The notes under the pieces were generated by a model. The model searched no databases, was not told where the DNA came from, and saw only the letters and a program-made list of their open reading frames with translations. Of a stretch of DNA of 64,000 nucleotides, positions 26,730 to 54,272 are shown in pieces. The first letter of the stretch is position 1, and the number at the start of each line of letters is the position of its first letter. Both the position numbers and the translations under genes were made by a program. Source of the stretch: a virus (Duplodnaviria; Caudoviricetes); IMG/VR virus record IMGVR_UViG_3300002220_000062, positions 27,454-91,453 of that record. One strand, given 5' to 3'.

Positions 26730-29700
26730 TTAATTTGTTATGTAATTAATATACTGATATTTTTGTTTATATGTAGTCTTTTTTAAATTTATAATTGGTG
26801 TTAATGATTTTAAATCTTTAACAATAACTAAGTTACCTTTAGAATCTTTATCTGTAACTGACCAAGGTGTTATAGCTGTACCTAGAATACTTGTTAAACT
26901 TTCTACAACTCTCATTGATGGAATTGGAGACTTTAAAATTTTGTATTGTTGTCTAGGGTCAATATAAGACATTAACTCTGAGTTTAATCTAGCTGCAACT
27001 AAAGCTGTGTACCATAAAACACTATCATCATCATCTCCATCTCCTGCTAATCCAGAAAGCAATATTGCTAATTTAAATAATAATATATTTAACCCAGCTT
27101 CTGCAATTGTTTTTTGTATATTTTTCTTTTCTGAATCAGATAATTCATTCCAATTACTTGATAATAACTTAAAGTTCATCTCTTTTAAAGCAGGAAGTAC
27201 CGCTTTAATAAAATATCTTATTGTAGTTGTATACATACCTTCTATATCCTCTTGTAATGCGTCTGAGAAGAATCTTTCCTCCTCTAATAATTCATCTTTA
27301 GCTTTCCCAACATGTACAAAACCCCTCCATCTATTAAGTGCAGACTCAACTAAATATTTACGAAACATCATAAAGATTTTACCTGTTGCATGTCTCATAG
27401 CCTCTGGTTGCATATTACTATCATAGTTACCCATGGTCTGAAATATTTTAGCTTTTAAGAAATTATTAACAATTTCTTTTCCACCCTCGTTATATTTTAT
27501 ACCAAGTGATTTAGTTGTATATACTACTTTATTATTTAAAACCAGTTTTCCTTTGGAGTTGTCAAGCATATCTAATAATGATGCAGCATTTTTTTCATCT
27601 ACAATATTACCATTAGCATCTATAAAATTACTATCAGCATCTAATACTTTAATAGTTTCTAGTACCCCCATAGTTAAAACAGATTGTAACCAATGCTCAC
27701 CAGATGCTTGCATAAATTGCATTGAATCTGAATTTAGTTTTGCTTTAGCTAAAGTATTTTTAATAAAAGCCTGTTCTACAGAAACACTTACCATACCAAA
27801 TGTATCAAACATCTCATTTATTTGATTTGTTATTGACATTTTAATAGGTGAAGACATATCTTTTAAATTATTTAATGCATCTGCAAAATATAATTTTTCT
27901 GCCTTCATTAATGCAGAACCAGAAATATGATTTCCAGCAAGGCCTTCTAAGAATAACTGAGCCTTACCATTAAGTACGTTAACTGAACCAGCAACCTCAT
28001 TTATCCACATACCTAATTTAGCAGTCCATCCATTAAGTACACCAACTGCTTTATTCATATCTACTCCACCAATACTACCTGCGTCTTTATGTAAAATATC
28101 ATATAAATTACTTTCCATTAAAGATACTAATCTTTCATAAGTTTCAGATTTGATTCCTTCAACTGTTGCTGTTTTATTTCTCTTAATAATAAGATTAACA
28201 AATGGTACTCTACTTCCAGTAGTTTTATAGTATTTCTTATTTTTAGCTATCTCAACTAAACTAGTCATACTATTTTCTGCTTGATGTTTTTCATCAAAAT
28301 TTACACCATTTTTAGCTTCTAATCTGTAAACAGTAAACAAATCTAATGATTGTTGTGATGGTTCAATTTTACCTCTAAAATTTATCTTAACCTCATAAAT
28401 AGGATTACCAGCTAAATCTTGTTTTATAGTTTCATAACCAATATCATCAGGTCTTATACTTGTTAAATCTTTCCAAGCATCAGTAGCTATACCAGTAGCA
28501 TTACCCTCTATAACTCTCTCTAAATTAGATTTGGTGATAGATGGTAGATTATAAAATACAGAACCAAATAATGGTTTACTCACAATTGAATGTATACCAA
28601 AAGTTTGTTTTTTAGTATCTAATGAAATCTGTCTAAAAGCCAATAAAGCTTCTTTCTCAACTTCACTTAAATCCTCTAAGTTATTTAACCATTCTTTATT
28701 TGGTTTTGATAATCTAGTACCTTTTTCATTAACTACCTCATGAGTATTATTAAGTATCCATTTTTTAAATTCTGAATTTGTAAAGTATTGTCTAAATTCT
28801 CTAGAATTCTTTCCAAATTTTACAATAACTTCATCTCTACCTAATGTATATTCAGCTAATTTTTTCTCATATAGTAATTTGAATTCTAATTTAACTTCAC
28901 CTTTAAGATATGCTCTGCCATATGCGTCATATTCTAATAACTTTGCGTGTGCTTTAGATGGACTTTGCCCTTTTTTTTCAGTTGACCATTTATCAAAAAT
29001 AGATTTTAGTTTAAAATCATTATCTCTATCCCTTCTAATAATATTTTCTATAATACCATTTATAAGATTTTGCATAATTTGTACTAACTTAGAATTAGTA
29101 CTTATACCAGATACAAATAATTTAGTACCAAGACTTATATCAAAGTGAATATCATATACAATACTATTTGCATAATCTTCTACTTCTTTATCTATTTCAT
29201 CAGCATAAGTAGTATTCATCATTTTAGATACCCATGCAGTTTTCCCTTCTGGTATTTGTAAATCAAAATGTTGTTTTTCTAATTTAGTTTTCCATTTTGC
29301 TAATACTTTAGCAGCATATTTTCTATTATTTAAAACTTTAATAACACCTTTTTTATTTATAGCCTCAATATTATTAGTTAAAGTAGTATATTTGCCAAGT
29401 GCAGCACCTAACTCTTTTTCAAGTGTTACAATATCCTCTCTTTTGATTAAGGTTTGGTCACTTGTTCTCATTTCTGAGATAAAAGATAATACTTCGTGTA
29501 TTAAAGAGTGAGCAGTTAAATATTTTTTATATAAAGCAATAGTATTTTTAATACTGTCAGCAGTTAAGTCTTCTTTATCAAAAGCAGTTTCAAGTGAGTT
29601 AATATTTTTAATCATACTATGAGTAAAGATACTAATAGCTTCCCATTTCTTTGCATTATCAAATACATCAATATCCGCGAATAATTTTTTAAGATTATCA

Positions 29701-31385
29701 GAGTATTTTTTTAACTTAGTTGGGTCTTTAATTACTTTAATTAAATGGTCATATCTTCTAATACTTTCTTCTAAGTTATCTTTAATACCATTTAATAAGT
29801 ATGTTTGTCTTTCTTCAATAGTTTTTAAAGAATAGTATGTACGTGGCTCTCTACTTTCATAGATACCCTCATTAATACCTCCTTCATAATCACTTTCTTG
29901 TATAACTTTAGTAATACTATTAATTAACTTAGTGTAATCACTATTCTTAGGTAATCCAAATAATGTTCTAATATAATCTACAATCTGAGTCCATAAAGAT
30001 TTACCATTTTCCTCTATACCCATTAATTCTAATTGGAACTCCTCATTAGTCATTAATTCAGCTATAAATTCTTCTTGGTTTTTAAACCCATATGATTTAT
30101 TTGTTGATAATAATTTGTATTTGGTATACATCTTATTAATAAAGTCTTTGAACATCTTTTCATTCATTGACTCAGGTCTTGTATAAGCTTTTATTGTAAC
30201 ACTATGAACTATCTCATGTAATAATGAAGAGATTACTTGCGCAGGTGTAAACTGTAATAATCTATCTTTATTTATTTCTATTATATTTGTAGATGGGTCA
30301 TACTGCATTACAGTATTAAAATTCTTTAATCTTGATTCTGCTACAAATTTAATTTTAGCATTAGTTCTATAAAGTAATGGTAATAGTTTTTCAATAAGTA
30401 ATTTTGTAAACTTATTAAAGCCTTTGTAATTAGTTTTTATATTATCTAATACTTCTTTAGCAGTAAATGACTTGTCCTCATTATTAAATAATATAAAGTT
30501 AATAGGATTATTTTCTTTAACTTCATTGACAGTATTTTCACCCTCTACTATAGAAAGGAAGTCATCTGTGTTTTCATCTAATAATTCTGTAATTCTTGAT
30601 TTACTACTTACTAATATATTATTACTTTCAAAATCAATAAATTGTTTAAAATTTTCAATATCTTGTTCTGAACCTAATATATGTATTTGTTCTGGTTCAA
30701 ATACTACATATTGTCCTGATTTATTATCAATATTTCCGTCTTGTGTAGTTTTAGCAACATCTTCACTTTTTGATAATATGCTAACTTCTTTCGGATTAAT
30801 TATATTAATAATAGATGGATTATAAGATTTTAATTCTTTATTAGCTACTGTTTCTGTATAAAATTTTGCCTTATCTTTAGTTGTAGCGAAATAAAAACCA
30901 CTTCCTAACATTTGACCAGCTCCTGAATTTAAAAATTCTTTAGAAAATTTATCAATATTTACATAACTCCCATGATAAACAATATCTTTTACTTTACTTT
31001 CAGGAAATATGGTATCTAAATATTTAGAATATTCTTCTTGTGTACCTATTTCAGATAATTCAGGGTTATTTTCAAATATAGTATCTATACCTTCTTTAAT
31101 AATTATATTATCTTGTTTAGTAATTATATGTTCTTTTTCATATTCTTTCACTATATCATCATATAATGATAAAACATTATCATTAGGAATAATAGTAGAT
31201 GTTTCTGCATCTATCTCAAATAGACTTTTACCATAAGTATTTAAGCCGTATTTTTGTTCAGCAATATTACTATATAGTTCATTTAATCCTTCAAATTTTG
31301 AAAAATCAATTATTTGTCTATCTTCATTAATAGCTCCCTTATCTACTAAATCTGTGATTAGTTTTTGTTTTATTGGACAACTCAT
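26730..31385 (-). CDS. Large virion ejection/RNAP-associated protein with zincin and ART-like domains
   Basis: 1551 aa directly after the vRNAP gene; LLHEIVH...EEFIAE zincin motif; VYHGS...GSGFYFA ART-like segment. Confidence 0.7.
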   Translation of the reverse strand: MSCPIKQKLITDLVDKGAINEDRQIIDFSKFEGLNELYSNIAEQKYGLNTYGKSLFEIDAETSTIIPNDNVLSLYDDIVKEYEKEHIITKQDNIIIKEGIDTIFENNPELSEIGTQEEYSKYLDTIFPESKVKDIVYHGSYVNIDKFSKEFLNSGAGQMLGSGFYFATTKDKAKFYTETVANKELKSYNPSIINIINPKEVSILSKSEDVAKTTQDGNIDNKSGQYVVFEPEQIHILGSEQDIENFKQFIDFESNNILVSSKSRITELLDENTDDFLSIVEGENTVNEVKENNPINFILFNNEDKSFTAKEVLDNIKTNYKGFNKFTKLLIEKLLPLLYRTNAKIKFVAESRLKNFNTVMQYDPSTNIIEINKDRLLQFTPAQVISSLLHEIVHSVTIKAYTRPESMNEKMFKDFINKMYTKYKLLSTNKSYGFKNQEEFIAELMTNEEFQLELMGIEENGKSLWTQIVDYIRTLFGLPKNSDYTKLINSITKVIQESDYEGGINEGIYESREPRTYYSLKTIEERQTYLLNGIKDNLEESIRRYDHLIKVIKDPTKLKKYSDNLKKLFADIDVFDNAKKWEAISIFTHSMIKNINSLETAFDKEDLTADSIKNTIALYKKYLTAHSLIHEVLSFISEMRTSDQTLIKREDIVTLEKELGAALGKYTTLTNNIEAINKKGVIKVLNNRKYAAKVLAKWKTKLEKQHFDLQIPEGKTAWVSKMMNTTYADEIDKEVEDYANSIVYDIHFDISLGTKLFVSGISTNSKLVQIMQNLINGIIENIIRRDRDNDFKLKSIFDKWSTEKKGQSPSKAHAKLLEYDAYGRAYLKGEVKLEFKLLYEKKLAEYTLGRDEVIVKFGKNSREFRQYFTNSEFKKWILNNTHEVVNEKGTRLSKPNKEWLNNLEDLSEVEKEALLAFRQISLDTKKQTFGIHSIVSKPLFGSVFYNLPSITKSNLERVIEGNATGIATDAWKDLTSIRPDDIGYETIKQDLAGNPIYEVKINFRGKIEPSQQSLDLFTVYRLEAKNGVNFDEKHQAENSMTSLVEIAKNKKYYKTTGSRVPFVNLIIKRNKTATVEGIKSETYERLVSLMESNLYDILHKDAGSIGGVDMNKAVGVLNGWTAKLGMWINEVAGSVNVLNGKAQLFLEGLAGNHISGSALMKAEKLYFADALNNLKDMSSPIKMSITNQINEMFDTFGMVSVSVEQAFIKNTLAKAKLNSDSMQFMQASGEHWLQSVLTMGVLETIKVLDADSNFIDANGNIVDEKNAASLLDMLDNSKGKLVLNNKVVYTTKSLGIKYNEGGKEIVNNFLKAKIFQTMGNYDSNMQPEAMRHATGKIFMMFRKYLVESALNRWRGFVHVGKAKDELLEEERFFSDALQEDIEGMYTTTIRYFIKAVLPALKEMNFKLLSSNWNELSDSEKKNIQKTIAEAGLNILLFKLAILLSGLAGDGDDDDSVLWYTALVAARLNSELMSYIDPRQQYKILKSPIPSMRVVESLTSILGTAITPWSVTDKDSKGNLVIVKDLKSLTPIINLKKTTYKQKYQYINYITN

Positions 31386-34300
31386 TATTTACAAGGTTTG
31401 TTTATTGCGTCATTGTTATCATTAAATAAATCCAACTGACTTGGGTCTATTTTAATTTTACTCTTATTTTCTGTATAAGGTTTAATGTTCCTTAACTCAT
31501 TTATTACTTCTGCTAATGATTCAGCATGTGTTCCTTCATTTCTTCCAGCTAATCTTTTATCATATAGTAATGTAGCGTTATCAAGTTTTCCTGAATTTAT
31601 TTCATCTAATATCCACTCACGTTGTTCTGGCTCAACACTTCTTAATACAATAGTTTCACCATTTGCAGTAGTATAATCAGCATAGTCCTTTTTACCTAAT
31701 AACCAGTCTTTATATGTATTCGCAGCAGCTGTTACAGCAGAGATTCCTTCAGATGATAACTTAATTGTACCATTTACACCACCCTCACTAAAAGGATTAC
31801 CAAAATGTGAATATTCATGTGTCCTATTTAAAGTTCTCATAGTATTAACTCCATCTGTAGTATATACAGGTTGATTTTTTAATACTGTCCATTTATTTTC
31901 TAAATCTACTTTAACTTGTCTAGGTTTTTGTTCTACATTTTCAACACCCTGTAAAGTATTAATATAAACATCTGTAATAGCTTGTTTACCTATTTCATTT
32001 ATCTCTCTTGTACCAATGCCAGCAAAGTTCTTAGTTAATGATGGTGTATTTACTTCTGTAAACTCACTTCCATTCCAAGTAAACCATTTACTTTCATTTT
32101 GGTCAAATACATATACAGGTTTGTTTTGTTGTATAGCCATTTCAACTGCATAACCAGTTCCTCCTTGAATAGCATCTTTTATTAAAACTCTTTGTTCTGC
32201 TTTTGGTTTACCTAAATCTGCTTTCCATACATCTCCTGCTTTTCCTATTGAACTTATAGCAAATACAGCATCAGAATTTTTAACTTGGGCCCAGTTTCTA
32301 ATTAGCTTCTCTTCTTTCATTGTAGCGTATTTATAACCCCACATAGCTTTAGCTGCTTTAGCAACCATTGAAGGACCCTCAATAGCCTCTGACATATCAC
32401 TAATATTTACATTACCCCTTGGTGTTTTAGTATTTAAATAGTAATGTTTATTATTTACCATTCCAAATTCTTCACCTATATAATCCCACTCTGAATCAGA
32501 ACCATTAGCACCACCAGAATGATTAGTAAAATCACCCATATTAGTAGGTTCTTTTTTAATTTCTGTTTTTACTCTTGTATCTATTTCTTCAGCTGAAATT
32601 GACTTTTCTTTTTCTTCTTCCACTTTTTCAGGATTTATTAATGCATAAAATTGACCAGTAATTTCAGGAGTAAGAGTTAATTGATTTAATGGAAAGATAC
32701 TTCTATTAGTTTCATCCCATTTACTATATTCTAATACTTTAAATCCTTTTCTATCACTGTATCCTAAAGTTTCAGATGCTATATATACTGGATTATTAGC
32801 AGGAGTAAAACCTATTAAACGATATGACCTTTCAATTGGGTTTCCTTCTGGGCTTTTAGCATTCTTTTTAACCCATTCTCTTGTCATACTTTTCTCACTT
32901 GGATATAATGCAAAACCATAATCATTATTAGGCAGTTTTGTATTTACCTCATTATCAAATATTTTTTTAGTTACTTGATAATCTTCTTTATTTGCTTTAA
33001 AGAAATCATGTTGAAAAACAGTATCTATTTTTCCACCCATATTATTTAACTCAATGGCTGTATCTATTATATAATCATTTAAATTATTTTTAGCAAACCA
33101 TTCATATGGTATGTAACTATAGAATTGATTAATATTCATTTGAAAACCTGAGCTTAAAAATGAATATTTAATAAGCATAGTAGATAACTCAGGATTATCA
33201 TTCATTAAATCCAACCAAGCTGTAGTTAAATCATTCTCTATAGATGCTGATTTTTTTCTATTACTCATACCTATAAATTTCATACCAGTCTCATTAGTTT
33301 TTATTTCTAATTCTTGGACCAATAAGTTTTTACTTACTTTTTTATAAGCATCTAATATATCTACAGTTTTAGTAACTATTGCCCATCTATTATGTTGTGT
33401 CATTTTTAATGGACCAAATCCTGACATAATATATGAATAATAACTATTCTCCAATTTTGTTGCTAATTTTTCACTTAATAAATCAGTTCCATAAATGGAT
33501 TTTGATATTGCATTAAATGTATTTACAACTGTTGGGTTTGCTATTAGGAATGTAGATGGGTTTGCTTCCATTACATCTCCTATAAAATTAATAATATTTT
33601 CAGTATAAGCACCAAGTAGTGTATATTTACCATTTTTAACCAACTTAGTACTAAACCCTTTAAAATTACCCTCTTCTGCTTCATCATTATTAATTAAATT
33701 ATGAATTAAATTTTTCATAATGATTAATGATGTTACATTTTTTCCATAACCAGATACATCAACCTTAGATGCATCGTTATTTTCTTTTATCTTTTTAGCT
33801 TGGTTTTGCCATTCTATAAAAGTATAGAAAATATTCATCTGTGTTTCAGGATTAGCCTTACCATTAATTTGAACTCTCAGCTCTTTTAATGATAAACTAT
33901 TTATTTTAAATCCTTTTCTGCTTTTAAATCTTCCTTTAGTAACAAATATTACTTTCTTTATTTCTTCAAATTGCTCTTCAGAAACTTTAGATTTAAATAA
34001 TCTAGATAATGTTTTAATTGATATATCACCTTTAGTTGATTCATAAATAGTTCTATAACTTTTAGTAACACCATTTATTGTCTTAGGTGCAAAAGATTCT
34101 AATTCTTCTACTACTTTACTTTCAACATATTTTTCTTCTATATTACCAGTATTCTTGTTAATTTTAGACTCAGCATTGGTAATGAAGTTAATATATTCTT
34201 TTATAACTGGTTGTCCTATTAATGCATTAACATAATAAGGATGAACACCAGCTCTTAATAACATAAACCCTACGTTAGCAGTTTGTGTAGTCCAGTTACC

Positions 34301-37300
34301 TCTAGTAATATAAGGGTCTCTAGCAATATCCACATACGCATTTAATAATGCTGAGAGTGAGTTTGCTATGTTTATTTTTTTTAGACTTTTATCACTAGTT
34401 TTAACAGTTTTATTATAGTATTCAAAATCCTCATCTGATAGTGGTTGTGAATATTCAGAGTCAAACGTTGTTTCCTCTTGACTATTCATTTTACCAATAC
34501 CTAAATTATATTTATGAAAACCTAATGAAGCCATCATACCCCTTACGTGGTCAACTACAGCATTAGCAGTTTGACCTACCCCAGCTTTACCAGCAATAAA
34601 TTGATATTTTAATTCAATCTCATTTATTAGATTAAAGTCAGATAGATTTGTAGATGGTGGTATAGGAAATAAGTCCTTTATATCATCTTTAATAAAACTA
34701 TAATCAATTGGAGTCATTACCTCCTTAATTACCTTTGGGTTCGTTAAAACAGCTTTATAGGCTTCTATTAGCTTATTCTGTAATCCTTTTACAGAATTAG
34801 TTTCTAAATTGTTATCTTCTTTTATATATTCTAATTTACTAACAACATTATAATTAGGAATTTCTTTCTTAATATTTTCAAGTAATTTACTCTTACTATC
34901 TGAATGTAAGATAAAATTAACTAACTCATTAACATCATGATTTAATATATCTTTTACATCACCACCAAATAAGAATCTTACAATACTTTCCTCATCTAAT
35001 TGTGATGAGTCTTCTACACCTAATTCATCTAATAAATCAGCTACTTTTTTACTTGTTTGTAAAAGTGTTTTACCTCTTAAGTTTGTATAAATATACTCTC
35101 TAATTTTACCAGCATTTTTATATAATGCTTTAAAACTAGGCATCATCAAATACATCTTATCAATATCAAAGTCACTACCTGTTTTAGTAGTAATACCAGT
35201 ATATGTAATAATAGTATCTCCAACTTCTGCTGGTAATATACCAACTACTTCAATAGCATCATTTGATGCCAATGCTTGATTAGGAATCCTATAACTTACA
35301 ATATTTCTTAGTATTCTTTGGTCTATTAATCCATCTGTATAATTATTTTCTTTTGTACCAAATAATTGTGCTGGTGTTTTTGATGCATAATCAGGAACAT
35401 ACTTTGCAATAAAAGAACCAGAAAGTAAAACACCACCTGGTCTAATTATTTTTCTACCTGTTTTAGATAAAATAAACTCACCATTATCATCCCTTAAGAA
35501 TGTAGGCTCGTGGGTAGTGTTCATAGCCCAAGGAGTCCATATTACACCTTTTTGATTTGCTTCTTCATTACTAAACCCATAGTTAGCCATTTGAATAAAT
35601 GCTCCACCATTTGTTTGTATTTTTACTAATCTTTTTAAAGATATAGATGCAAATATATTTTGTAACTTTTGTTGATAACCAGGAATACCAAATGGAGATA
35701 AACCAGATTCTAAAGCATCAATAACATTTTGTGGTGCTCTTCTAGTTTTCAATTCATCTACTAATACCTTGTTTAATCTAGCAATATTACCTATTTTATT
35801 ATTGGAAGAAATACCAAATTCTTTTTGGAAACTACTTTTACCTTTATTAGATAATGTTTCTACTATTTTATTAATGTAATTTAATAGATTTTCACCATTT
35901 ATTTCTTCTCCATCCATTATAAATTCTTCTGTTGGATTAAAAGCTAATCCAGCAAATATATTTTTTTGAATCTGAGAGCCAACAGCTGTATCTTTAAATG
36001 TTTTAGTTGGTAAATCTTGTTGTAATTTCCATCCACTATTTTTTAAGGTTAATGGATTTAATTTGAAGTTATCTAATACTTTACCATTTTCATCATGTGA
36101 TTTTGTAGGTAGGTTAGACCCAACTTTAATACCTTGTCCTGTAATTAATTCATCTATATTATCAGTCACCATTTGGTCTGCTAATCTTTTAAGGCCAGGA
36201 TTATTCTTAACTAATTGTGGTAATAAGACAGCTTGTGAGTATTTTAAATAAGTAGGCACACCATTGTTAATTTCAAAGTACACTCCTTTTAATGGTTGTG
36301 CTGCTCTTTTTAATTCATCAACAGTAAATGGTTCTTTATTTATTTGCATTAATTTATCAAATACAATATCATCTATATTAGCCCATTTTCCTAAACCTTG
36401 TTTTAAAAATTTCCAACGTTCAGGAGTTATCCAAGCTTGTGCATCTGTAGAATCAATACCATCTTGTATTACTTCACCTTTTTTATCTACTTTTCTTTCA
36501 TAGAATTTTCCAATAGTTCTCCATTCTTTTTCAGTAAATAACTCTTTTAAGTTTTCATTAAATGGAGAGGTAATTAATACATCTTCTATAATAGCAACAT
36601 TATATGTTTCTTGGCCTTCTTTTAAATATAATTGTAAACCATCAGTGTATGTTGCTGGGATACGTTTCTTATAGTCAACCATATTTTTATAATAAGCAAC
36701 ATCTCCAGAGAACATTTTTGAATACTCTATTTGAGATATTAACCCATTTACATAAACATCACCTGCCAACTTTAAACCAGTAAGTTTACTACCAGCATAA
36801 GAATCCCATATTTCAGAATCAAATCCTTTATTAACCTCCTGGCCTAATGAATTAAGTGTTACTAAACCTATATTTCTTATTTGTTTATATGTATCAAGAA
36901 TATCTTGACTTACAGTTTGATTTATTACTTTTAAAATATCTTCTTTAACAACATCTAAATCCATATCTATAATAGTTCCATCTTCATTATAAAGACTGAA
37001 ACCAGATTCAACTGCGTTAAAATTCTCAAAGTTTAAACTGTTAAATAATTGAAATTGTAAACCATTAGCTCTTTTGTCTCCATTTAAATGGTAGAACATT
37101 CTTAATTTACTAGAGTCATTAGTAGCTTTAGCTAATGCTAATTCTTCTTGTACAACTTTAATACGATTAAACTCTGACTTAACGTAGTTATATAATATTT
37201 CTTGGGAAGGTTCACTTATTATTGCTTTCCCATCTACAAATTTAGTGTTACTATCAACAACCATTCCTTTAGTTAACTCAAATTGGTATTGAGTACTTTT

Positions 37301-39253
37301 ATCTGCTGGAGTTGCTGTATTTATATATGATTTGCCACCTACTTTTTTATAACTTAACATTTTATTATAAATGTCTGCAAAAAAGTCATTCATTGAGATA
37401 GATTTATTATCTTCTGCATTTTTTGCATCACCCATTTCTTGTAATGAGTTAAATACAACTAAATCAAAGTCTTCTATTCTTTGTTTAGAGACTCTAATTT
37501 GTTCTTCTTCTGATACATTTAAATCCAATCCTAAAAGGTATTGCATATAAAATGAACCTTTAGTGTATGGGGTAGATTTATAATAAGTTAATAAAATATT
37601 TCTATCTCTTTTCCATTCTTTAACCCTTGTAGATAAATAAGATGGATATGAATATAACCATTTAGATTTACCTGTTGAGAAAATAGAAGCATCTGAGCCA
37701 TCTTTTAAATAAAAAGAATGTGCATTTGCTAATACATTAAATTCATTTTGGTCATCAAATGGATTTATATTAAAGTTATTTAAAGATTTTACAGTTAATT
37801 TATCAATAAAGAAAGTAATAGAATTTATTAATTTAATTAACTTTTGTACTCTCTTATCATTATCTACTTCTATGTTACTTAAGTTATCTAAATAATGGTC
37901 AAATCCCTCAGGTGTTGTAATAACACCCATACTCTCTAATAATTTTCTAACACTAAGTGTAGAGGCATTTAAATTATTTTCATTTGGTTTAATAGTCTTA
38001 AAATCACTAGCAAGGTCTTTTAGCCCTTTAAGTGATGTACTATTAAATAAATTATTTACAGCAAATAATTGTATAAAATTATGATTCCAATTATTTTTTA
38101 TAAATCTATTTTTACCACCTACATTAGATAAGTTTTGTACACTATGAACTATAATATTCTTTTTTCCAATTGCCTCTCCAGTTAATGGGTCAACATCAGC
38201 TACTTGTTTAACTTCATATATAGTTCCTATAAAATTGTTTTTATGTAAATTAAAAGCTTGTACAAACTCAGCTTTTAAATAAGGACTCATATCTTTTAAT
38301 AAAGGAATTAAATCCTTTAAGTATTGTTTCTTACCAGATAATGTAGAAAGTTCTGTAAGATACATTTCAAATAAATCTTCTCCAACTAAACTTGTTTTGT
38401 CTGTTAAATTAGCTAATAATGTTCCATATACATCATCAAATGAACGTAACTCTGGTTCTAAAAATAAAGGGTCAAGATTTTCAGTATCAACTAATAATGA
38501 TAATCTTAATTTTATATTAGCCGATATATTATCTTTAGTACTTTTTTCAAAGGATGCTTTATCATATGATGCACCTCTTTCTCCTTCTTCTTCATCTAAC
38601 ATATCTTCCACTTCAGTAGTTTCCTTGTACACAAGTTTTAACTCTCTGAAGTAATTCTCAACATGTTTTACCCACTCATCTATATTATCTAAAGATTGCT
38701 CTAGTATAACAGCATTAATACGTCTAGTCATATCAGGACTAGCCTTTAACTCTATTACTTTTGACTTTATTTTATTTTCAATACTAGTTCTTAAATTAAC
38801 TAAATTCTCAGTTACATCAAAGTCATTAAAGTTATCACCAATTCTACTAGATACAAAATTTAAAGCTAGTCTTTTAGCAGTAGACCTAATTACTTCATTA
38901 CTAAATCTAGTGTTTAATTTTCTATCTGTAATTGGAAAATATACTTTTATATTATTTTGATTAGTGTAGTAATATTTACCATACTTATTATCAAATTCTA
39001 ACTTAGGTTCACCATTATCATCTACTCTTCGTTGATTAACTTCTCTTTCAAGAAATGGTTTTTTAAAGTCTTCTTCTAAATCTATTGCTTTATTATTATC
39101 ATCAGTAGCAAATTCTTTTAAGAAAGTACCATTTGTTTTAAAATAGTCATAATACTCCTTAGTTAAATCTTCATTCTTATTTGTTATATTATTAAATATA
39201 GTATTAAATAATATAGAATCTTGTTTATTTTCTAATTTTATTGTACAACTCAT
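31385..39253 (-). CDS. Virion RNA polymerase (crAss-like), catalytic subunit
   Basis: 2622 aa; YRIPNQ...TGSDFDIDKMY with DFDID at 35159-35173, the catalytic motif of crAss-like vRNAP; DAQAW upstream. Confidence 0.9.
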   Translation of the reverse strand: MSCTIKLENKQDSILFNTIFNNITNKNEDLTKEYYDYFKTNGTFLKEFATDDNNKAIDLEEDFKKPFLEREVNQRRVDDNGEPKLEFDNKYGKYYYTNQNNIKVYFPITDRKLNTRFSNEVIRSTAKRLALNFVSSRIGDNFNDFDVTENLVNLRTSIENKIKSKVIELKASPDMTRRINAVILEQSLDNIDEWVKHVENYFRELKLVYKETTEVEDMLDEEEGERGASYDKASFEKSTKDNISANIKLRLSLLVDTENLDPLFLEPELRSFDDVYGTLLANLTDKTSLVGEDLFEMYLTELSTLSGKKQYLKDLIPLLKDMSPYLKAEFVQAFNLHKNNFIGTIYEVKQVADVDPLTGEAIGKKNIIVHSVQNLSNVGGKNRFIKNNWNHNFIQLFAVNNLFNSTSLKGLKDLASDFKTIKPNENNLNASTLSVRKLLESMGVITTPEGFDHYLDNLSNIEVDNDKRVQKLIKLINSITFFIDKLTVKSLNNFNINPFDDQNEFNVLANAHSFYLKDGSDASIFSTGKSKWLYSYPSYLSTRVKEWKRDRNILLTYYKSTPYTKGSFYMQYLLGLDLNVSEEEQIRVSKQRIEDFDLVVFNSLQEMGDAKNAEDNKSISMNDFFADIYNKMLSYKKVGGKSYINTATPADKSTQYQFELTKGMVVDSNTKFVDGKAIISEPSQEILYNYVKSEFNRIKVVQEELALAKATNDSSKLRMFYHLNGDKRANGLQFQLFNSLNFENFNAVESGFSLYNEDGTIIDMDLDVVKEDILKVINQTVSQDILDTYKQIRNIGLVTLNSLGQEVNKGFDSEIWDSYAGSKLTGLKLAGDVYVNGLISQIEYSKMFSGDVAYYKNMVDYKKRIPATYTDGLQLYLKEGQETYNVAIIEDVLITSPFNENLKELFTEKEWRTIGKFYERKVDKKGEVIQDGIDSTDAQAWITPERWKFLKQGLGKWANIDDIVFDKLMQINKEPFTVDELKRAAQPLKGVYFEINNGVPTYLKYSQAVLLPQLVKNNPGLKRLADQMVTDNIDELITGQGIKVGSNLPTKSHDENGKVLDNFKLNPLTLKNSGWKLQQDLPTKTFKDTAVGSQIQKNIFAGLAFNPTEEFIMDGEEINGENLLNYINKIVETLSNKGKSSFQKEFGISSNNKIGNIARLNKVLVDELKTRRAPQNVIDALESGLSPFGIPGYQQKLQNIFASISLKRLVKIQTNGGAFIQMANYGFSNEEANQKGVIWTPWAMNTTHEPTFLRDDNGEFILSKTGRKIIRPGGVLLSGSFIAKYVPDYASKTPAQLFGTKENNYTDGLIDQRILRNIVSYRIPNQALASNDAIEVVGILPAEVGDTIITYTGITTKTGSDFDIDKMYLMMPSFKALYKNAGKIREYIYTNLRGKTLLQTSKKVADLLDELGVEDSSQLDEESIVRFLFGGDVKDILNHDVNELVNFILHSDSKSKLLENIKKEIPNYNVVSKLEYIKEDNNLETNSVKGLQNKLIEAYKAVLTNPKVIKEVMTPIDYSFIKDDIKDLFPIPPSTNLSDFNLINEIELKYQFIAGKAGVGQTANAVVDHVRGMMASLGFHKYNLGIGKMNSQEETTFDSEYSQPLSDEDFEYYNKTVKTSDKSLKKINIANSLSALLNAYVDIARDPYITRGNWTTQTANVGFMLLRAGVHPYYVNALIGQPVIKEYINFITNAESKINKNTGNIEEKYVESKVVEELESFAPKTINGVTKSYRTIYESTKGDISIKTLSRLFKSKVSEEQFEEIKKVIFVTKGRFKSRKGFKINSLSLKELRVQINGKANPETQMNIFYTFIEWQNQAKKIKENNDASKVDVSGYGKNVTSLIIMKNLIHNLINNDEAEEGNFKGFSTKLVKNGKYTLLGAYTENIINFIGDVMEANPSTFLIANPTVVNTFNAISKSIYGTDLLSEKLATKLENSYYSYIMSGFGPLKMTQHNRWAIVTKTVDILDAYKKVSKNLLVQELEIKTNETGMKFIGMSNRKKSASIENDLTTAWLDLMNDNPELSTMLIKYSFLSSGFQMNINQFYSYIPYEWFAKNNLNDYIIDTAIELNNMGGKIDTVFQHDFFKANKEDYQVTKKIFDNEVNTKLPNNDYGFALYPSEKSMTREWVKKNAKSPEGNPIERSYRLIGFTPANNPVYIASETLGYSDRKGFKVLEYSKWDETNRSIFPLNQLTLTPEITGQFYALINPEKVEEEKEKSISAEEIDTRVKTEIKKEPTNMGDFTNHSGGANGSDSEWDYIGEEFGMVNNKHYYLNTKTPRGNVNISDMSEAIEGPSMVAKAAKAMWGYKYATMKEEKLIRNWAQVKNSDAVFAISSIGKAGDVWKADLGKPKAEQRVLIKDAIQGGTGYAVEMAIQQNKPVYVFDQNESKWFTWNGSEFTEVNTPSLTKNFAGIGTREINEIGKQAITDVYINTLQGVENVEQKPRQVKVDLENKWTVLKNQPVYTTDGVNTMRTLNRTHEYSHFGNPFSEGGVNGTIKLSSEGISAVTAAANTYKDWLLGKKDYADYTTANGETIVLRSVEPEQREWILDEINSGKLDNATLLYDKRLAGRNEGTHAESLAEVINELRNIKPYTENKSKIKIDPSQLDLFNDNNDAINKPCK

Positions 39254-39255
39254 TA

Positions 39256-42200
39256 TTATTTACATTTTAAAAGTAGTGTAGCTATATTTAATTTTCTTTC
39301 TTCAGCCATAATTCTTATAGCTTCAAATTTTTCTGCATTAGTTTTTTTCCCCATAATATTATTATATATATCACTTCCTAATTGTAGGTGCCCAAGATTA
39401 GATAATTCTATTATGATTTTAACTATAACATCATCTGTAACCTCAATTGTATCTGTTGTAATATTTTTTTGTTTTAACTCCTCAACTACTTTTGATTCAG
39501 TAGTATTTGGAACTTCATGCAAAGGTACAACTTTTTCTTGAAATTTCCTAATTTTTTCAGGTTTATTTTCTTCTAAAGTATCCCAATTAACCAAATTTTG
39601 TATAGCTGTCCCAATTGGACTTGAAGATAATATTACTGTTCCTTTTTCATTTGTAATTACACCATTACCATTTACAATAGCTACAGTATACTTTTTACCT
39701 TTATATGTAATTTCTTGTGATGGTTCTAAAATATCTTCAAAGTTTTCTTTACCTTGTTCTTCTTGTAATTTAAGTTCTTTTTTTCTAGCTACAGGAACAG
39801 TATCTATTAACTTACGTTCTTCAGCAGTAAAATCAGTAAAAGGTCTACCATTAGGTTTAACCATTTCTCTTACTAAATCTTCTGCTCTAATAGTTTCAAT
39901 ATTACTTTGGTTTTCTGCATCTGTTAACTTTCTAGGTCTTTTTAATTTTTCTTCTAAATATTTATCTACATCATCTCTAGTAAGAAAATATTCTTGATTT
40001 TTACCATCAATAGTATATCCACTTTTATCAGAATATTGAATTAACATTTTATCTACAGCATTTATACCTACTCTAGATTCCATAACTTCATCCATTAATC
40101 TTATATAATCTTGAATTATATCATCAGGAATAGATTGTAATATACTATTAGCTAATTCAGCTATATTATCAGAATTTATTTGACTTACTACAGAATCATT
40201 AATATTTATTCCTTCATTTAATGTTCCTCTTATTATATTTAATAAATCTGTTAATTTTCTTATATCTTCCCCATTCTTTATACCAGCTTTTAATAAATCT
40301 TGTAATTGTTTTATTTTGTTTTTAAGTAAAGGTTCTTTTGTTTTCCAATGTTTACTTAATAATTCAGTAGGTGTGAAAGATTTATTATTAACAAAATCTA
40401 CAACTTTATTAATAAGTAAATCTATATTAGACTTAGAATTTATAATAATAGGTATAATTTCTGTTTTAGCACCTCCAGATACATTTACTTTATCTGAATT
40501 AAGATATATACCAGAGAATCCTTGAAAGGTTGGTGTAAACTCACCAACAACTGCATTTGTATTTAATATTTTATTAGATAATAAATATGTTAAATAATTA
40601 TCATTTGTTTCAATTGTTGCTTTGGTAGTACTCCCCTTTTTAGGTTTAATATTTATATTATATCTTTTATTATTTTGTAACCATTGAGAAAAATGCTCCT
40701 TATTAAAATCTTTTGCATTTTCTATAACTTTCCCAGTAGTTTTAGAATTACCATACACAAAATTAGATACACCTTTTTTCTTAGTACCAGTAAATTTAAC
40801 CCTACTCTTAGTACTCTTACTCATATCCCAAATTAAGAAATCTACTATATCTTTTAAAGTAACATCATTGAATGGTTTACCAATCAACTTTATCTCTTCT
40901 GCAAAAGTTTCTTTTATTTGTTTAATTAATTCAGGATTTTTAATCTCTGATAATGTTGTAGATTTTTCTACTGTATCATTTTGTAATCTTAATTCATATA
41001 AACTTGCCAATAAATCAGCATCTGTTTTATTTATTTTTTGAATATTTAACTTTAATGGAAACTTAAATCCATTAGCCATAGGAATTATCATATATATCTC
41101 CCCAGCAGTATTAGTCTTATCAAAATAAGGATATATAGTACCATCTATAAATTGTAGTTGTCCTAAAGCATTTACAAATCCTAATCTTTTCTTTACTTCT
41201 CCTACTCTTCTTTCTTGTGAAATTTTATATAAGAAATGTAAATCAAGTACAGAATTTTCAGCTACTTTGCCATCTACTTTACCATCTACTTGTAATTCTC
41301 CAGCATATTGGCCTTCTATTTCTCCAGTAATTTCTTCTATGGAACTCTTTGCAATTAATGCATTAACAATTTTAGTTCTTAGTAATTTAGAGGAGTTATC
41401 AAATTTATTAGAAGTTCCATTTGATGTATATTTTGTATGTATAGGTGCTTGTTGTTCTCCTAATACTACATTTATAGGTAAATAGTTAATAAGAGTATCT
41501 ATTTCTTCTTTGGTTAAAGTTTCACCAGCTACTAATCTATCATAGATTTTTACTGCTTTATTCCAATTAGCTTTACTAGTTTTTACTATACTACTATCTG
41601 TTGGTACAACCTCACCAGAAGTTCTATTAACAGCAAAGTTAACAGCAACTCCTTTCTTATTTCTTGGGTCTTGTTCTAAAGATATAAATTTATCATCTAC
41701 AAATGATAATTTAGTTTTCTTTACTCTATCATATGATAAAATAGGAGTACCATTACCTCTTTTTAGTTCATCTCCAGTTTCATTATTCTCATTTGTCTTA
41801 GGTATAAGTTTATCGTGATTATCACTACCATCTGTATTAAACTCAGATTCAAGATTAACTTCTACTTCTTTTGTTACTTTTTTATTTATAACCACAACAG
41901 CACCAGTCTCCATTACTTCTAATGTAATGGTGGTAGCTGTAATATCATCAGGAGATGCTAAAACAATATGATTATATAAATCAGACTCATCAAGTTGACC
42001 ATTAGAATTATTTATTAATTCTTGTGAGATTGGAACTAATTCCCCAACATTGTAATTTGATACAATTTCTTCTATATTATCTTCAGCTTCCTCTTCTTCT
42101 ACCTCTTTGTTTTCTTTATTCTCATTAGTAGTTTCTTTCTGTTTATTTGCTTGTTCAACACCTTTTGCTGTAATCTCATCTTTTAATTGTGCTTTTTTAG

Positions 42201-44436
42201 CAGCTACAGCCACTTTTAAAGCTTTGTCCGCTACAGTATTAGTATAAGTAATGTTATCTAACTCTTCTGGTGTTTTAGCCTCTGAAATCTTCTTTTGTAT
42301 TGCTTCAATTTTAACTTGATTAGCAGCTTCTAATGCTTTCTCTAAGTTCTCTCTATCTTTTACTTCAGCAGCAAATGTTTTTTCATGATTAACTTTATTC
42401 CAAAATTCATTATCTTGTTTATTTACTTCTTCCAAAGTAGCAGTAAATTCCGCTATATCATCATTTAATTCTTTTATTGCAAAGTTATTTTTACTAAGTT
42501 CTACCCCAGTATCACTCAGTAAATCTAAGTCTACAGGTAAACCAAGGGACATTAATAAATTAGACCTAGTTGTTTTTGTTTTATCTATTTGTTCTTCATA
42601 GAAATATTTTGCATTCTTACTACTTATATATGTAGATGCTAATTTATTATAAAATCTCTTTTTATCATCAGCAGTTGCATTTTCATTTTCTAATTTTACT
42701 AATGCTGGTGCAAATTGACTAAAAGTATTAAAGTCTTGTGATAATTTTTCAGCTCTTGATAATATAGTTTTAGAAATATCCTCTACTTCTTTTTTTTCTT
42801 TTAAAGCAACTTCTTCAATAGTTTTTGATTGCTCAAAGTATTGATGTAGAGCTGTTAATCCTAATTCATCATTAAATATAAAATTCTTGATTAATTCCCC
42901 ACTAACAAAAGCACGCATACTTTCTATAGTCTTTTCATCTCCTGATGCTATTGCTTTATCATAATATTCAGATAAGTGTTCAGATAATCCAATTGCTTGA
43001 GCTTTATCTTTAAATTTCTTTGGGTCTAAAGTTCCATCTTCTTTATGAACATCTCCTGTAAATATTTGATAGAAACTATCTAATTTAGCCAGTTCTGGTA
43101 ATAAATTATTTAAAGCTTTAGATTCTTGATTCTTTTGTAATATATTAGTTACTACTTGCATAGGTCCGCCCATCATTGAACCAAGCAAAACTGCTTTTTG
43201 GCCTTCTACACTAGTAATCATATCTATATAAGCTGGTCCTAAATCCCCTAATAAATCAAATTGTGATTTTAATGTATTTAATACACCTTCTCCTCTTTGT
43301 TCACCTTTAACTGCTCTATTCACATGATATTCTTCCGCAACAGATTGCATACCTTCCTCAAAGAAACCTTCTCTTAAAGAACCTTTTCCAAAAGTTTTAG
43401 CCCCTTCTCCAACTTTACTTAATAAAGATTTAGTTGGCATTGTAGTTAATACTTTACCAGCATCATCTACAATATTACCCGTAGCTTTATTTAAACCTTT
43501 ACCCCATAGCATTTTTGCCATAATTAAGTTGGGAACAGCAAGAATAGTTACATTTGATATAAATACATCACGCATAGCTTCTCCCTTACCAATATCAAAA
43601 TCTTCCTGAGATATTTCACCACTATCTAATTTTGGTTGCATCCTTGCTACATAACTATCTCCAGCACCTTTTGCCTCTGCGCCTGCTTCAAATATTGTAT
43701 TAGCAATTGCAGCAGAGGTAACATTTATAGAACCTGGAGTAACATTAATTTTTCCTAATACTGAAACAGCATCATCTACTTTAGAACCCATAGCACCAAT
43801 TTTATTTACACCTGCAAATAATTTAGCACCTATACCCATTTTATTAATAATAGCACCAGGAGCAAACATAGCTAACATATAACCAAGACCGTCCGCACCT
43901 TCTTTTGCCCAAAAATCTATGGATTTAAAATTCTCCCATATATTACCATTTTCAACTGCCTTTTTAACATATACAGGAAGTAATTCAGTATTAACTGTTT
44001 CATTTAGATTATCAAGACTTTTAATCCATGAATTATTAACTGCTGTTTCAAAAAACTGATTATTTTCACTGTCAAATATTTCTCCAATACCTCCTATAAT
44101 TGTACCTCCTATTGTTGGAACCATTTTTAAAACCTCTATACCAGCTTTAGTAATAACTCTACCAGTCCCACTTCCTAATTTAGATAACCAAGGTTGTCTT
44201 TGCGCTCTATTTTCTGATATTAATTCTTGAGAACCAAATGAATCTTCTTTACCATCTTGATTTAAACTAACATTTGATAGTAGACCAACATCATATTTAC
44301 TTTTACCATAGTCTAAACCCCTAACTACTTCTGTAGAAGGGGTTCTAGATGTTTTAAATTTTTTAAACCCTGGTTGTTTTAATATACCAATGTCAAATTT
44401 AGCATCATAACTATTTAATAATTGTTCATCATCCAT
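39256..44436 (-). CDS. Large virion ejection protein of the RNAP cluster
   Basis: About 1725 aa; Gly/Ala-rich hydrophobic N-terminal region, FFEEGMQ, coiled-coil middle; ATG 44436 preferred to avoid a long overlap. Confidence 0.7.
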   Translation of the reverse strand: MDDEQLLNSYDAKFDIGILKQPGFKKFKTSRTPSTEVVRGLDYGKSKYDVGLLSNVSLNQDGKEDSFGSQELISENRAQRQPWLSKLGSGTGRVITKAGIEVLKMVPTIGGTIIGGIGEIFDSENNQFFETAVNNSWIKSLDNLNETVNTELLPVYVKKAVENGNIWENFKSIDFWAKEGADGLGYMLAMFAPGAIINKMGIGAKLFAGVNKIGAMGSKVDDAVSVLGKINVTPGSINVTSAAIANTIFEAGAEAKGAGDSYVARMQPKLDSGEISQEDFDIGKGEAMRDVFISNVTILAVPNLIMAKMLWGKGLNKATGNIVDDAGKVLTTMPTKSLLSKVGEGAKTFGKGSLREGFFEEGMQSVAEEYHVNRAVKGEQRGEGVLNTLKSQFDLLGDLGPAYIDMITSVEGQKAVLLGSMMGGPMQVVTNILQKNQESKALNNLLPELAKLDSFYQIFTGDVHKEDGTLDPKKFKDKAQAIGLSEHLSEYYDKAIASGDEKTIESMRAFVSGELIKNFIFNDELGLTALHQYFEQSKTIEEVALKEKKEVEDISKTILSRAEKLSQDFNTFSQFAPALVKLENENATADDKKRFYNKLASTYISSKNAKYFYEEQIDKTKTTRSNLLMSLGLPVDLDLLSDTGVELSKNNFAIKELNDDIAEFTATLEEVNKQDNEFWNKVNHEKTFAAEVKDRENLEKALEAANQVKIEAIQKKISEAKTPEELDNITYTNTVADKALKVAVAAKKAQLKDEITAKGVEQANKQKETTNENKENKEVEEEEAEDNIEEIVSNYNVGELVPISQELINNSNGQLDESDLYNHIVLASPDDITATTITLEVMETGAVVVINKKVTKEVEVNLESEFNTDGSDNHDKLIPKTNENNETGDELKRGNGTPILSYDRVKKTKLSFVDDKFISLEQDPRNKKGVAVNFAVNRTSGEVVPTDSSIVKTSKANWNKAVKIYDRLVAGETLTKEEIDTLINYLPINVVLGEQQAPIHTKYTSNGTSNKFDNSSKLLRTKIVNALIAKSSIEEITGEIEGQYAGELQVDGKVDGKVAENSVLDLHFLYKISQERRVGEVKKRLGFVNALGQLQFIDGTIYPYFDKTNTAGEIYMIIPMANGFKFPLKLNIQKINKTDADLLASLYELRLQNDTVEKSTTLSEIKNPELIKQIKETFAEEIKLIGKPFNDVTLKDIVDFLIWDMSKSTKSRVKFTGTKKKGVSNFVYGNSKTTGKVIENAKDFNKEHFSQWLQNNKRYNINIKPKKGSTTKATIETNDNYLTYLLSNKILNTNAVVGEFTPTFQGFSGIYLNSDKVNVSGGAKTEIIPIIINSKSNIDLLINKVVDFVNNKSFTPTELLSKHWKTKEPLLKNKIKQLQDLLKAGIKNGEDIRKLTDLLNIIRGTLNEGININDSVVSQINSDNIAELANSILQSIPDDIIQDYIRLMDEVMESRVGINAVDKMLIQYSDKSGYTIDGKNQEYFLTRDDVDKYLEEKLKRPRKLTDAENQSNIETIRAEDLVREMVKPNGRPFTDFTAEERKLIDTVPVARKKELKLQEEQGKENFEDILEPSQEITYKGKKYTVAIVNGNGVITNEKGTVILSSSPIGTAIQNLVNWDTLEENKPEKIRKFQEKVVPLHEVPNTTESKVVEELKQKNITTDTIEVTDDVIVKIIIELSNLGHLQLGSDIYNNIMGKKTNAEKFEAIRIMAEERKLNIATLLLKCK
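39520..39551 (-). promoter_or_regulatory. Intragenic Bacteroidota-type promoter about 270 nt upstream of the vRNAP gene
   Basis: Minus strand TTAGGAA-N17-TACCTTTG, same spacing as four intergenic copies. Confidence 0.6.
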
Positions 44437-46315: not shown

Positions 46316-46317
46316 TC

Positions 46318-47922: not shown

Positions 47923-47926
47923 CTTA

Positions 47927-53530: not shown

Positions 53531-53534
53531 AGCA

Positions 53535-54272
53535 TTAAGAAAATTTTCTAATTTGTTCCTTAGCACCACTGCCTTTATAGAAATTATTGTGGGCTTGTGT
53601 ATTAATTATTAATCTATTAATAGTATTCATTATACTTTCTAAATGGTCTATTCCTGATAGTTTCATAGAAGTATCAGCACCACCCATATAGAAATGTCTT
53701 TTTTGTTCTATATAATTAAATGCTTTATCAGTTATTTTACCCATAATCCATATAGGTTCTAAAAATCTATGTAGAATGTAATATTCTATTGCCATAGATA
53801 ATTTAGCATCATCTGGTATAAGAGGATATCCATCTTCATCTACAATTAATGCTTTATAACTTATTTGTACATTACCACTAGGGACAGATAGATACATAAT
53901 ACCTTTTTGTGTAGTATACGTATATTCACCTACTAATTGTTTACCTTCTTCATTTTCACCACATTCTATAGCCATATGATAAATATCAGTAGCATGTCTT
54001 AATGCAATAGCACCAGTATCATAACTATTAGGATTAAAGACAAGTCTAGCACCTCGTATTGTTAATAATTCAGATGGTAATGCAACTTTATAATTTGATA
54101 TAACTAAAGGAGGATTAGTAACTTTATCTTCAAAGGATAAAGGTGCTCCTAGCAGTCTTAAAACTTCTATAGCATATTCAGCCGCCTCCTCATAAGATAA
54201 GTCTGCTGCTAATGGGTTCCTAAGAACTTTCCATAGTATTGTTTTAAGCGATATTGTTTGGCCTGAATTCAT
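53535..54272 (-). CDS. Tail ring/tubular protein (P22 gp4-like)
   Basis: ISYKALIVDEDGYPLIPD...AIEYYI pattern; crAss-like tail gene order. Confidence 0.65.
   Translation of the reverse strand: MNSGQTISLKTILWKVLRNPLAADLSYEEAAEYAIEVLRLLGAPLSFEDKVTNPPLVISNYKVALPSELLTIRGARLVFNPNSYDTGAIALRHATDIYHMAIECGENEEGKQLVGEYTYTTQKGIMYLSVPSGNVQISYKALIVDEDGYPLIPDDAKLSMAIEYYILHRFLEPIWIMGKITDKAFNYIEQKRHFYMGGADTSMKLSGIDHLESIMNTINRLIINTQAHNNFYKGSGAKEQIRKFS

Follow-up and report, generated by a model that had tools for sequence, protein, structure and literature searches.

In the human gut, crAss-like phages are more abundant than any other viruses. Here we describe the crAss-like virion RNA polymerase module of an uncultured phage, encoded in a stretch of 64,000 nucleotides with a G+C content of 28% (termed the window), which covers positions 27,454 to 91,453 of the 91-kb IMG/VR virus record IMGVR_UViG_3300002220_000062. 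The module comprises three giant proteins, termed A, B and C, whose few cysteines are confined to the ends by which the proteins face each other. Its closest described counterparts are direct orthologs, gp67, gp66 and gp65 of phage phi14:2 and gp47, gp50 and gp49 of crAss001, which are found in the same order after the muzzle and cargo proteins and which follow the same rule for terminal cysteines. The presence of these proteins in virions was shown by mass spectrometry for phi14:2 and crAss001, and for A, B and C we infer it from orthology. The preprint on the phi14:2 polymerase (bioRxiv 10.1101/2020.03.07.982082) and the structural atlas of crAss001 (PMC10172136) go no further than suggesting a probable cleavage of fused polyproteins; neither mentions terminal cysteines or links among the three proteins, and full-text literature searches found no paper on these cysteines in crAss-like phages. 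Disulfides between subunits were described in the tail and portal vertex of crAss001 virions (PMC10172136), and such bonds thus exist in particles of the same order, although there they rivet fixed structural proteins, whereas the pairs of the module would connect mobile cargo proteins by their ends.

Two more distant systems are relevant for comparison. In N4-like phages (Schitoviridae), the virion RNA polymerase (gp50 in N4, gp71 in DEV) and the proteins gp72 and gp73 are almost free of cysteine, which was explained by their passage through the oxidizing periplasm (PMC11445570), and which bears out the statement in a preliminary description of the window, made from sequence, that the ejected polymerase of N4 lacks this residue. 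The likeness concerns a giant, virion-packaged and ejected RNA polymerase with neighbours that are nearly devoid of cysteines, as in the fused, cysteine-free polyproteins of certain crAss-like phages (L087 and L014/L015 in our survey). In contrast, the N4-type polymerase is a single T7-like polypeptide without terminal cysteine or partner, whereas the crAss-like module contains a two-barrel (DFDID) polymerase, is split, and has kept cysteines only at the split points. The second system is Anabaena phage A-4L (A4), where we count a single cysteine each in gp27 (Cys1715 of 1717 amino acids) and gp26 (Cys5 of 1114 amino acids). The structure of the pre-ejectosome determined by cryo-electron microscopy shows a disulfide between both residues, located at the end of the C-terminal helix of gp27 (PNAS 2025, PMC12002296). 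The genes of these two large ejection proteins are adjacent, their sole-cysteine signature is identical to that of the A|B and B|C junctions, and A4 may have arrived at the same device independently. It differs by its single pair, its T7-like five-fold pre-ejectosome and the absence of an RNA polymerase, and the authors regard the bond as a local stabilizer, without deriving a rule or a chain from it. In the crAss-like module there are two pairs, and up to four in relatives, which would form a linear multi-protein thread and which track the fusion and fission of genes across the order. Cysteine depletion of ejected proteins and, with A4, a single head-to-tail disulfide are thus already known. 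New is a rule that applies across the order, that connects two to four giant cargo proteins with the polymerase among them, and that follows fusion and fission.

The three genes of the module and the four cysteine codons that they contain are located as follows.

39256-44436, minus strand: gene A, 1726 amino acids, ortholog of phi14:2 gp67 and first member of the proposed chain (the longest open reading frame starts at 44481)
39262-39264, minus strand: TGT codon of the only cysteine of A, two residues from the C-terminus (..LLKCK*)
39245-39247, minus strand: codon of Cys3 of B (MSCTIK..)
31385-39253, minus strand: gene B, virion RNA polymerase, 2622 amino acids, ortholog of phi14:2 gp66 (PDB 6VR4)
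31391-31393, minus strand: codon of Cys2621 of B (..KPCK*), which besides Cys3 is the only cysteine of this protein
31377-31379, minus strand: codon of Cys3, the only cysteine of C (MSCPIK..)
26730-31385, minus strand: gene C, 1551 amino acids, ortholog of phi14:2 gp65 and last protein of the proposed chain

The assignment of A, B and C as a module of the phi14:2 gp67-gp66-gp65 type is based on sequence comparison. In phmmer searches, the pairs A-gp67, B-gp66 and C-gp65 were matched with respective E-values of 1e-92, 1e-250 and 1e-118, and B matches chain A of the crystal structure 6VR4 with an E-value of 2e-246, sharing 30.5% identity with gp66 across 80% of its length. The two-barrel core of B contains the catalytic DFDxD motif, and the sequence S/D-F-D-I-D-K is invariant in the core alignment. 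As in crAss001, the muzzle gene comes first, followed by the cargo genes and then by A, B and C. Searches of PHROGs and Pfam returned no family for either A or B.

In a computed count, A, B and C together contain exactly four cysteines in 5899 residues (0.07%), all at facing ends, whereas the N-terminus of A and the C-terminus of C, which constitute the outer ends, contain none. This confirms what the preliminary description had noted by eye. With the cysteine content of the other open reading frames of the window (0.99%), about 58 residues would be expected, and the probability to find four or fewer is about 2e-20. The depletion is shared with other ejected phage proteins of the N4 gp50 type. 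The probability that four randomly placed cysteines would occupy the four junction ends, one in each three-residue end, is about 1e-12. Predicted structures offer a view of two of these ends: in an AlphaFold model of B, Cys3 is part of a 13-residue coil (residues 1-13) that precedes the first helix (mean predicted local distance difference test score, pLDDT, of 81), and in the model of A the cysteine ends the C-terminal helix of a short helical bundle (pLDDT of about 80 locally and 65 overall). In these models both positions would plausibly suit an exposed tether.

Two further features of the chain proteins concern regions outside the junctions. The true start of A is likely the ATG at 44436 (MDDEQLL...), which directly follows the stop codon of the upstream gene and fits the acidic N-termini of relatives. 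Such strongly acidic N-termini are found in the window (44392-44436, minus strand) and in L002-L032 (MDDEQLL, MEDEVIED, MEEEELNS, MDEEELGL and others) and may form the front of the proposed chain or provide a contact site for the upstream cargo protein. In C, residues 135-223 (30717-30983, minus strand) show a weak match to ART-PolyVal (E=5e-7, 30.9 bits compared to a cut-off of 31.2), and phrog_4700 matches the same stretch. The last member of the chain could thus possibly carry an injected ADP-ribosyltransferase domain of the type found in polyvalent proteins.

The phylogenetic breadth of the pattern was assessed in relatives, for which we collected first 14 and then 80 IMG/VR loci that contain the polymerase core, in addition to annotated phages. 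Open reading frames were called with TAG read as glutamine wherever the core holds an in-frame TAG. After collapsing loci at 90% core identity, 76 non-redundant clusters remained, which together with the window constitute the survey. Left out of the statistics were a fragment (L081), two loci with an in-frame stop or frameshift inside otherwise continuous genes (L062, L083), and four loci of the same cluster as L089 where recoded TAG had escaped the code test (L082, L086, L088, L090). A junction was defined as paired if a cysteine is located 0-8 residues from the upstream C-terminus and another among residues 2-9 of the protein that follows. By this definition, cysteines are found on both sides of 99 of the 107 junctions listed between open reading frames (one of the 107 being a script artefact for the window), and of 99 of the approximately 101 that are junctions at the protein level. 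In control reading frames, cysteines occur in 9.3% of such ends, which would predict pairs at about 0.9% of junctions. Conversely, none of the approximately 120 genuine outer ends carries a cysteine, since five flagged cases (L012, L019, L033, L057, L061) are artefacts that arose from truncated loci or from an A gene located elsewhere. Away from these ends, the module proteins contain 88 cysteines in 397,138 residues (0.022%), compared to 0.96% in 280 ordinary reading frames of the same loci.

The conservation of the terminal cysteines is also pronounced in alignments of the chain ends. In the last 250 residues of A from 28 homologs, the cysteine is the only near-invariant column and in the first 500 residues of B from 28 homologs, Met1 and Cys3 are the only invariant columns, with a mean column identity of 13-19% in both alignments. 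In 24 homologs each, the cysteine is the most conserved column in the last 250 residues of B (96%) and fully conserved in the first 400 residues of C. The residue is kept at core identities of 23-30%, although all of its neighbours vary. Besides the cysteine, short motifs are recognizable in certain clades. In the clade of the window, the cysteine on the N-terminal side is followed by x-I-K in both B and C, whereas P-N-x-N is found in many C and few B proteins (as in MVCPNKRL, MYKCPNKN and MICPNLND), with examples among the N-termini of C in L004, L016-L018, L020, L035, L041, L047, L055, L066, L070 and L080.

Certain lineages of the survey (L016, L017 and L058-L099, including many gut-type loci) show in-frame TAG codons throughout the module, with 70 of them in one gene of 4328 codons, and the codon is thus reassigned, presumably to glutamine. 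Internal cysteines number 2-8 per giant protein in these recoded lineages and in the polymerase of Carjivirus, translated here with the standard code, compared to mostly zero in environmental lineages.

The same organization is found in named phages. In phi14:2, the last residue of gp67 (1797 amino acids) is its only cysteine, gp66 (2180 amino acids) contains Cys3 and Cys2179 only, and gp65 (1421 amino acids) Cys3 only. In crAss001, gp47 (2341 amino acids) contains only Cys2339, gp50 (2412 amino acids) contains Cys5, Cys1334 and Cys2404, and gp49 (1349 amino acids) only Cys5. Here, the gene of gp47, the equivalent of A, is located on the opposite strand, convergent with gp49 and away from the start of gp50, and the sole C-terminal cysteine is kept although the partners are not adjacent. 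In Flavobacterium phage Fpv2, which under current taxonomy resides outside Crassvirales, gp33 (4401 amino acids) contains only Cys4400, and gp34 carries Cys3. In Carjivirus (p-crAssphage-like), a protein of 1957 amino acids ends in ..SFSCM* and the polymerase protein of about 4070 amino acids probably starts with MSCGNIK. The deposited version of the latter in CrAssphage sp. C0521BW15 (MW067001; L101:12950-13015), with about 4090 amino acids, has a non-canonical start (ILLYIS...) and an ATG located 21 codons downstream leads to MSCGNIK. Since this sequence matches the order-wide N-terminal M-x-C rule, the deposited start is probably wrong. In the same genome, a protein of 857 amino acids from the cargo region (L101:1870-4443) has its sole cysteine one residue from the C-terminus (..KQSCR), whereas the next protein has no N-terminal cysteine; this residue may reflect chance, for which 9% would be expected, or a link to something else.

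The presence of the cysteine pair follows the split or fused state of the genes. On a tree of the polymerase core, A and B are split in 33 and fused in 34 cases, which requires at least six changes of state, and in five of five independent contrasts the cysteine pair goes with the split state. Of the 34 AB fusions, 12 (with lengths between 3500 and 5300 amino acids) contain no cysteine or only the C-terminal one that faces C. We located the former A|B junction in fusions by a crude offset from the catalytic core, as a hidden Markov model of the N-terminus of B gave unreliable positions, and found a cysteine near the estimated site in only one fusion. An alignment of fused and split junctions did not reveal a conserved linker. 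In two unrelated lineages, represented by L087 (5005 amino acids) and by the overlapping fragments L014/L015 (more than 4500 amino acids each, with a fusion of over 4900), all three proteins are fused into one chain that contains no cysteine and whose tail is homologous to the separate C of the nearest relatives. The reverse is observed in two other unrelated lineages, where C is split once more and each new junction carries a new pair (..NCK | MSSC.. in L040 and ..IEC | MGKC.. in L044). The survey of fused and split relatives that the preliminary description had suggested as a check thus shows that the pair is kept at split junctions and dropped on fusion. A negative control is provided by L020 and L034, where the reading frame of B is broken by about 940 nucleotides within the catalytic GSD|FDVDK and no cysteine is found at the resulting ends, as fits the rule for a split that would be confined to the RNA.

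The insert in these two loci (L020:11530-12473 and L034:11617-12564) is matched by a model of group I introns in two separate stretches (E=2e-6 and 6e-4, neither reaching the gathering score) and contains a reading frame of 214 codons. It resembles a group I intron that carries a homing-endonuclease-like reading frame and interrupts the active site of a virion RNA polymerase of the crAss-like type. Other exceptions concern L042, which is split at a poly-lysine run in a manner resembling a frameshift, and L042 and L044, where non-homologous genes are inserted between B and C (L042:15780-17501, 573 amino acids; L044:13173-16658, 1161 amino acids). The inserted proteins start with M-S/N-K-x-I-E-x-E-G and contain two internal cysteines with a CxxxxxxC spacing and no terminal one, and they would thus not be members of the chain. 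In L044, the B protein next to the insertion has lost its C-terminal cysteine.

Because cysteines are found only at ends that face a module partner, on both sides of the junction, and because they appear and vanish with the break, we regard a bond between both ends as the reading that best accounts for the data. That the cysteines act as junction pairs, linking A to B and B to C, is strongly supported by the comparison of sequences, which also shows that the cysteine pattern is under selection and strictly tied to split junctions. Our favoured interpretation, to which we assign a probability of roughly 70%, is that disulfides join A, B and C head to tail in a chain of about 667 kDa, with the four terminal cysteines as tether residues. 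In the proposed mechanism, the three proteins would be packaged as cargo and kept free of cysteines like other ejected phage proteins. The cysteine two residues from the C-terminus of A would pair with Cys3 of B, and the one near the C-terminus of B with Cys3 of C, in likely inter-chain disulfides that would be established when the proteins are enclosed in the particle and no longer exposed to the reducing cytoplasm. The product would be a linear thread of 5899 residues running from N- to C-terminus, the covalent equivalent of the cysteine-free polyprotein of about 5000 amino acids found in some relatives. With each cysteine located 0-8 residues from an end, the joint would leave only tiny branch stubs and could pass a narrow channel, and, since the remainder of A, B and C is free of cysteine, no further disulfide would be possible, an argument also made for N4-like ejection proteins (PMC11445570), and any bond would give linear chains only. 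After ejection, the reducing cytoplasm of the host would free the three proteins. The preliminary description had already proposed such a chain. Of this proposal, the pairing at junctions now finds support in the order-wide conservation, the bare outer ends, the loss on fusion, the gain on fission and the A4 precedent, whereas we infer the disulfide as bond in crAss-like virions, the single-file ejection and the reductive release in the cytoplasm.

Several observations weigh against this interpretation. A phmmer search with A4 gp26 and gp27 against A, B and C gave no match at E<=1, which makes the precedent of the A4 disulfide one of analogy and not of descent. Virions assemble in the reducing cytoplasm, and neither a sulfhydryl oxidase (PF04777) nor a thioredoxin (PF00085) was found in the 91-kb record of the phage, the former being a weak negative as PF04777 found no match in any control genome either. 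Oxidation would consequently have to be spontaneous, with the oxidant being unclear for strictly anaerobic gut phages, and the disulfides of crAss001 and A4 were both found in aerobically purified particles. A further difficulty concerns specificity, since B and C begin in a similar way (MSCTIK and MSCPIK), A and B both end in CK, and the cysteine is the only conserved residue, which leaves nothing to explain the correct pairing and renders A-C, B-B or tail-to-tail products conceivable. Finally, a sign test on the A|B contrasts alone is underpowered (p=0.06), B of L044 lacks a terminal cysteine, and in A of L003 the cysteine is located 31 residues from the end.

Among the alternatives, the best surviving one assumes that each junction-end cysteine works alone, either as an anchor to a cysteine of a portal, ring or capsid-interior protein or as a recognition tag for packaging or processing. 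The M-[SAG]-C-x-I-K sequence shared by the N-termini of B and C, with C-P-N in many relatives, could be such a tag, and the tail ring proteins of the window phage do contain cysteines. Still, we consider this explanation unlikely, since a terminal signal would also be expected at the N-terminus of A or the C-terminus of C, and thus at the outer ends, where it is consistently missing, since both sides of a junction are gained and lost jointly, and since the upstream cargo proteins, which equally need to be packaged, contain no cysteine at all. The genes of these proteins and the structural genes preceding them are found at the following positions.

49481-53569, minus strand: muzzle protein gene (Pfam crAss_MUZ, E=2e-219)
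47927-49399, minus strand: cargo gene, 490 amino acids, with a crAss cargo protein 1 domain (Pfam), zero cysteines
46318-47946, minus strand: second cargo-sized gene, 542 amino acids, zero cysteines (open reading frame call and cysteine count)
44438-46315, minus strand: third cargo-sized gene, 625 amino acids, zero cysteines (open reading frame call and cysteine count)
44438-49399, minus strand: the three upstream cargo genes together, 1657 amino acids combined, zero cysteines

The tail ring proteins 1 and 2 were recognized by Pfam, likewise on the minus strand. Without cysteines, the upstream cargo proteins of 625, 542 and 490 amino acids are outside the proposed chain.

Less probable still is a scenario where the cysteines do act as junction pairs, yet by a different thiol chemistry such as a bridging metal ion, a thioester or other cross-link, or possibly a true peptide ligation. 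The comparative data reveal pairing and not the type of bond, and cysteines flanking both sides of a junction are reminiscent of protein splicing. Against this stands that each end conserves a single ligand with no conserved histidine, cysteine or aspartate nearby, that the 0-8 residues beyond the cysteine leave no room for an intein/HINT fold, and that the cysteine on the N-terminal side is found at position 2-9 and not at the very N-terminus, as chemistry of the native chemical ligation type would need. In phage A4, the same signature corresponds to a plain disulfide. Two further readings were rejected. Split inteins or trans-splicing are incompatible with tails that offer 0-8 residues after the cysteine on the C-terminal side and 1-8 residues before that on the N-terminal side, that have no Pfam match and that are not conserved except for the cysteine. 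For CaaX-type prenylation or lipobox lipidation, there is neither a motif nor a signal peptide, and the position of the cysteine varies.

The preliminary description had offered a coupling or recoding signal as its own alternative; the cysteine codons would then be a by-product of a translational signal in the DNA. It had pointed out the near-identity of both junctions, whose strings it quoted exactly. In the window, a stretch of about 30 nucleotides is almost the same at A|B and B|C, TGTAAATAA(TA)ATGAGTTGT, a similarity that runs on into the next codons (T/P-I-K). Both downstream genes also have the same frame offset, and the stop codon overlaps or nearly touches the following start codon. 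We reject this alternative as highly improbable, since spacing, frame, strand and junction DNA all vary in relatives. The 97 paired junctions span distances between -13 and 1727 nucleotides with frame offsets distributed 33/24/40, relatives keep the cysteines with different flanking codons and without conservation of the junction DNA, and in crAss001 the gene of gp47 does not even share the strand of gp50. The identity found in the window is what a CK-stop followed by MSC-x-IK would yield under AT-rich codon use. Last, chance or phylogenetic inertia in a cysteine-poor family can practically be dismissed, as, even though ejected proteins are generally poor in cysteine (PMC11445570) and a few stray terminal cysteines are found elsewhere, such as in the 857-residue cargo protein of Carjivirus ending in ..SCR, neither the improbable placement of the four cysteines in the window, nor the near-complete pairing of protein-level junctions, nor the retention of the residue among varying neighbours in distant homologs would be expected.

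Taken beyond the window, our results could reflect a general terminal-cysteine code in Crassvirales and their Flavobacterium-phage kin, where every fission of the giant cargo polyprotein would be repaired after translation by a disulfide between single cysteines at the new ends, and where a single covalent thread of 0.6-1 MDa would be ejected in fixed order and 1:1:1 stoichiometry, with the RNA polymerase in its middle, to be cut into active proteins in the reducing cytoplasm of the host. The device would have evolved independently in the cyanophage A4, and protein ejection by podophages may widely follow this so far overlooked principle. We lean only slightly towards this generalization. As a practical consequence, the pattern provides a rule for annotation, as a cysteine pair would mark a real protein boundary whereas a break without a pair would point to an intron, to a frameshift or to a start codon called wrongly, as appears to be the case for the polymerase of Carjivirus. 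With respect to the biology of these phages, the finding addresses the open question of how polymerase proteins of about 0.7 MDa get from a DNA-filled head through a narrow tail. If true, the order, the stoichiometry and the completeness of delivery would follow from a redox-cleavable covalent thread, which would at the same time account for proteins that are otherwise free of cysteines and for the evolutionary interchange between fused and split gene layouts.

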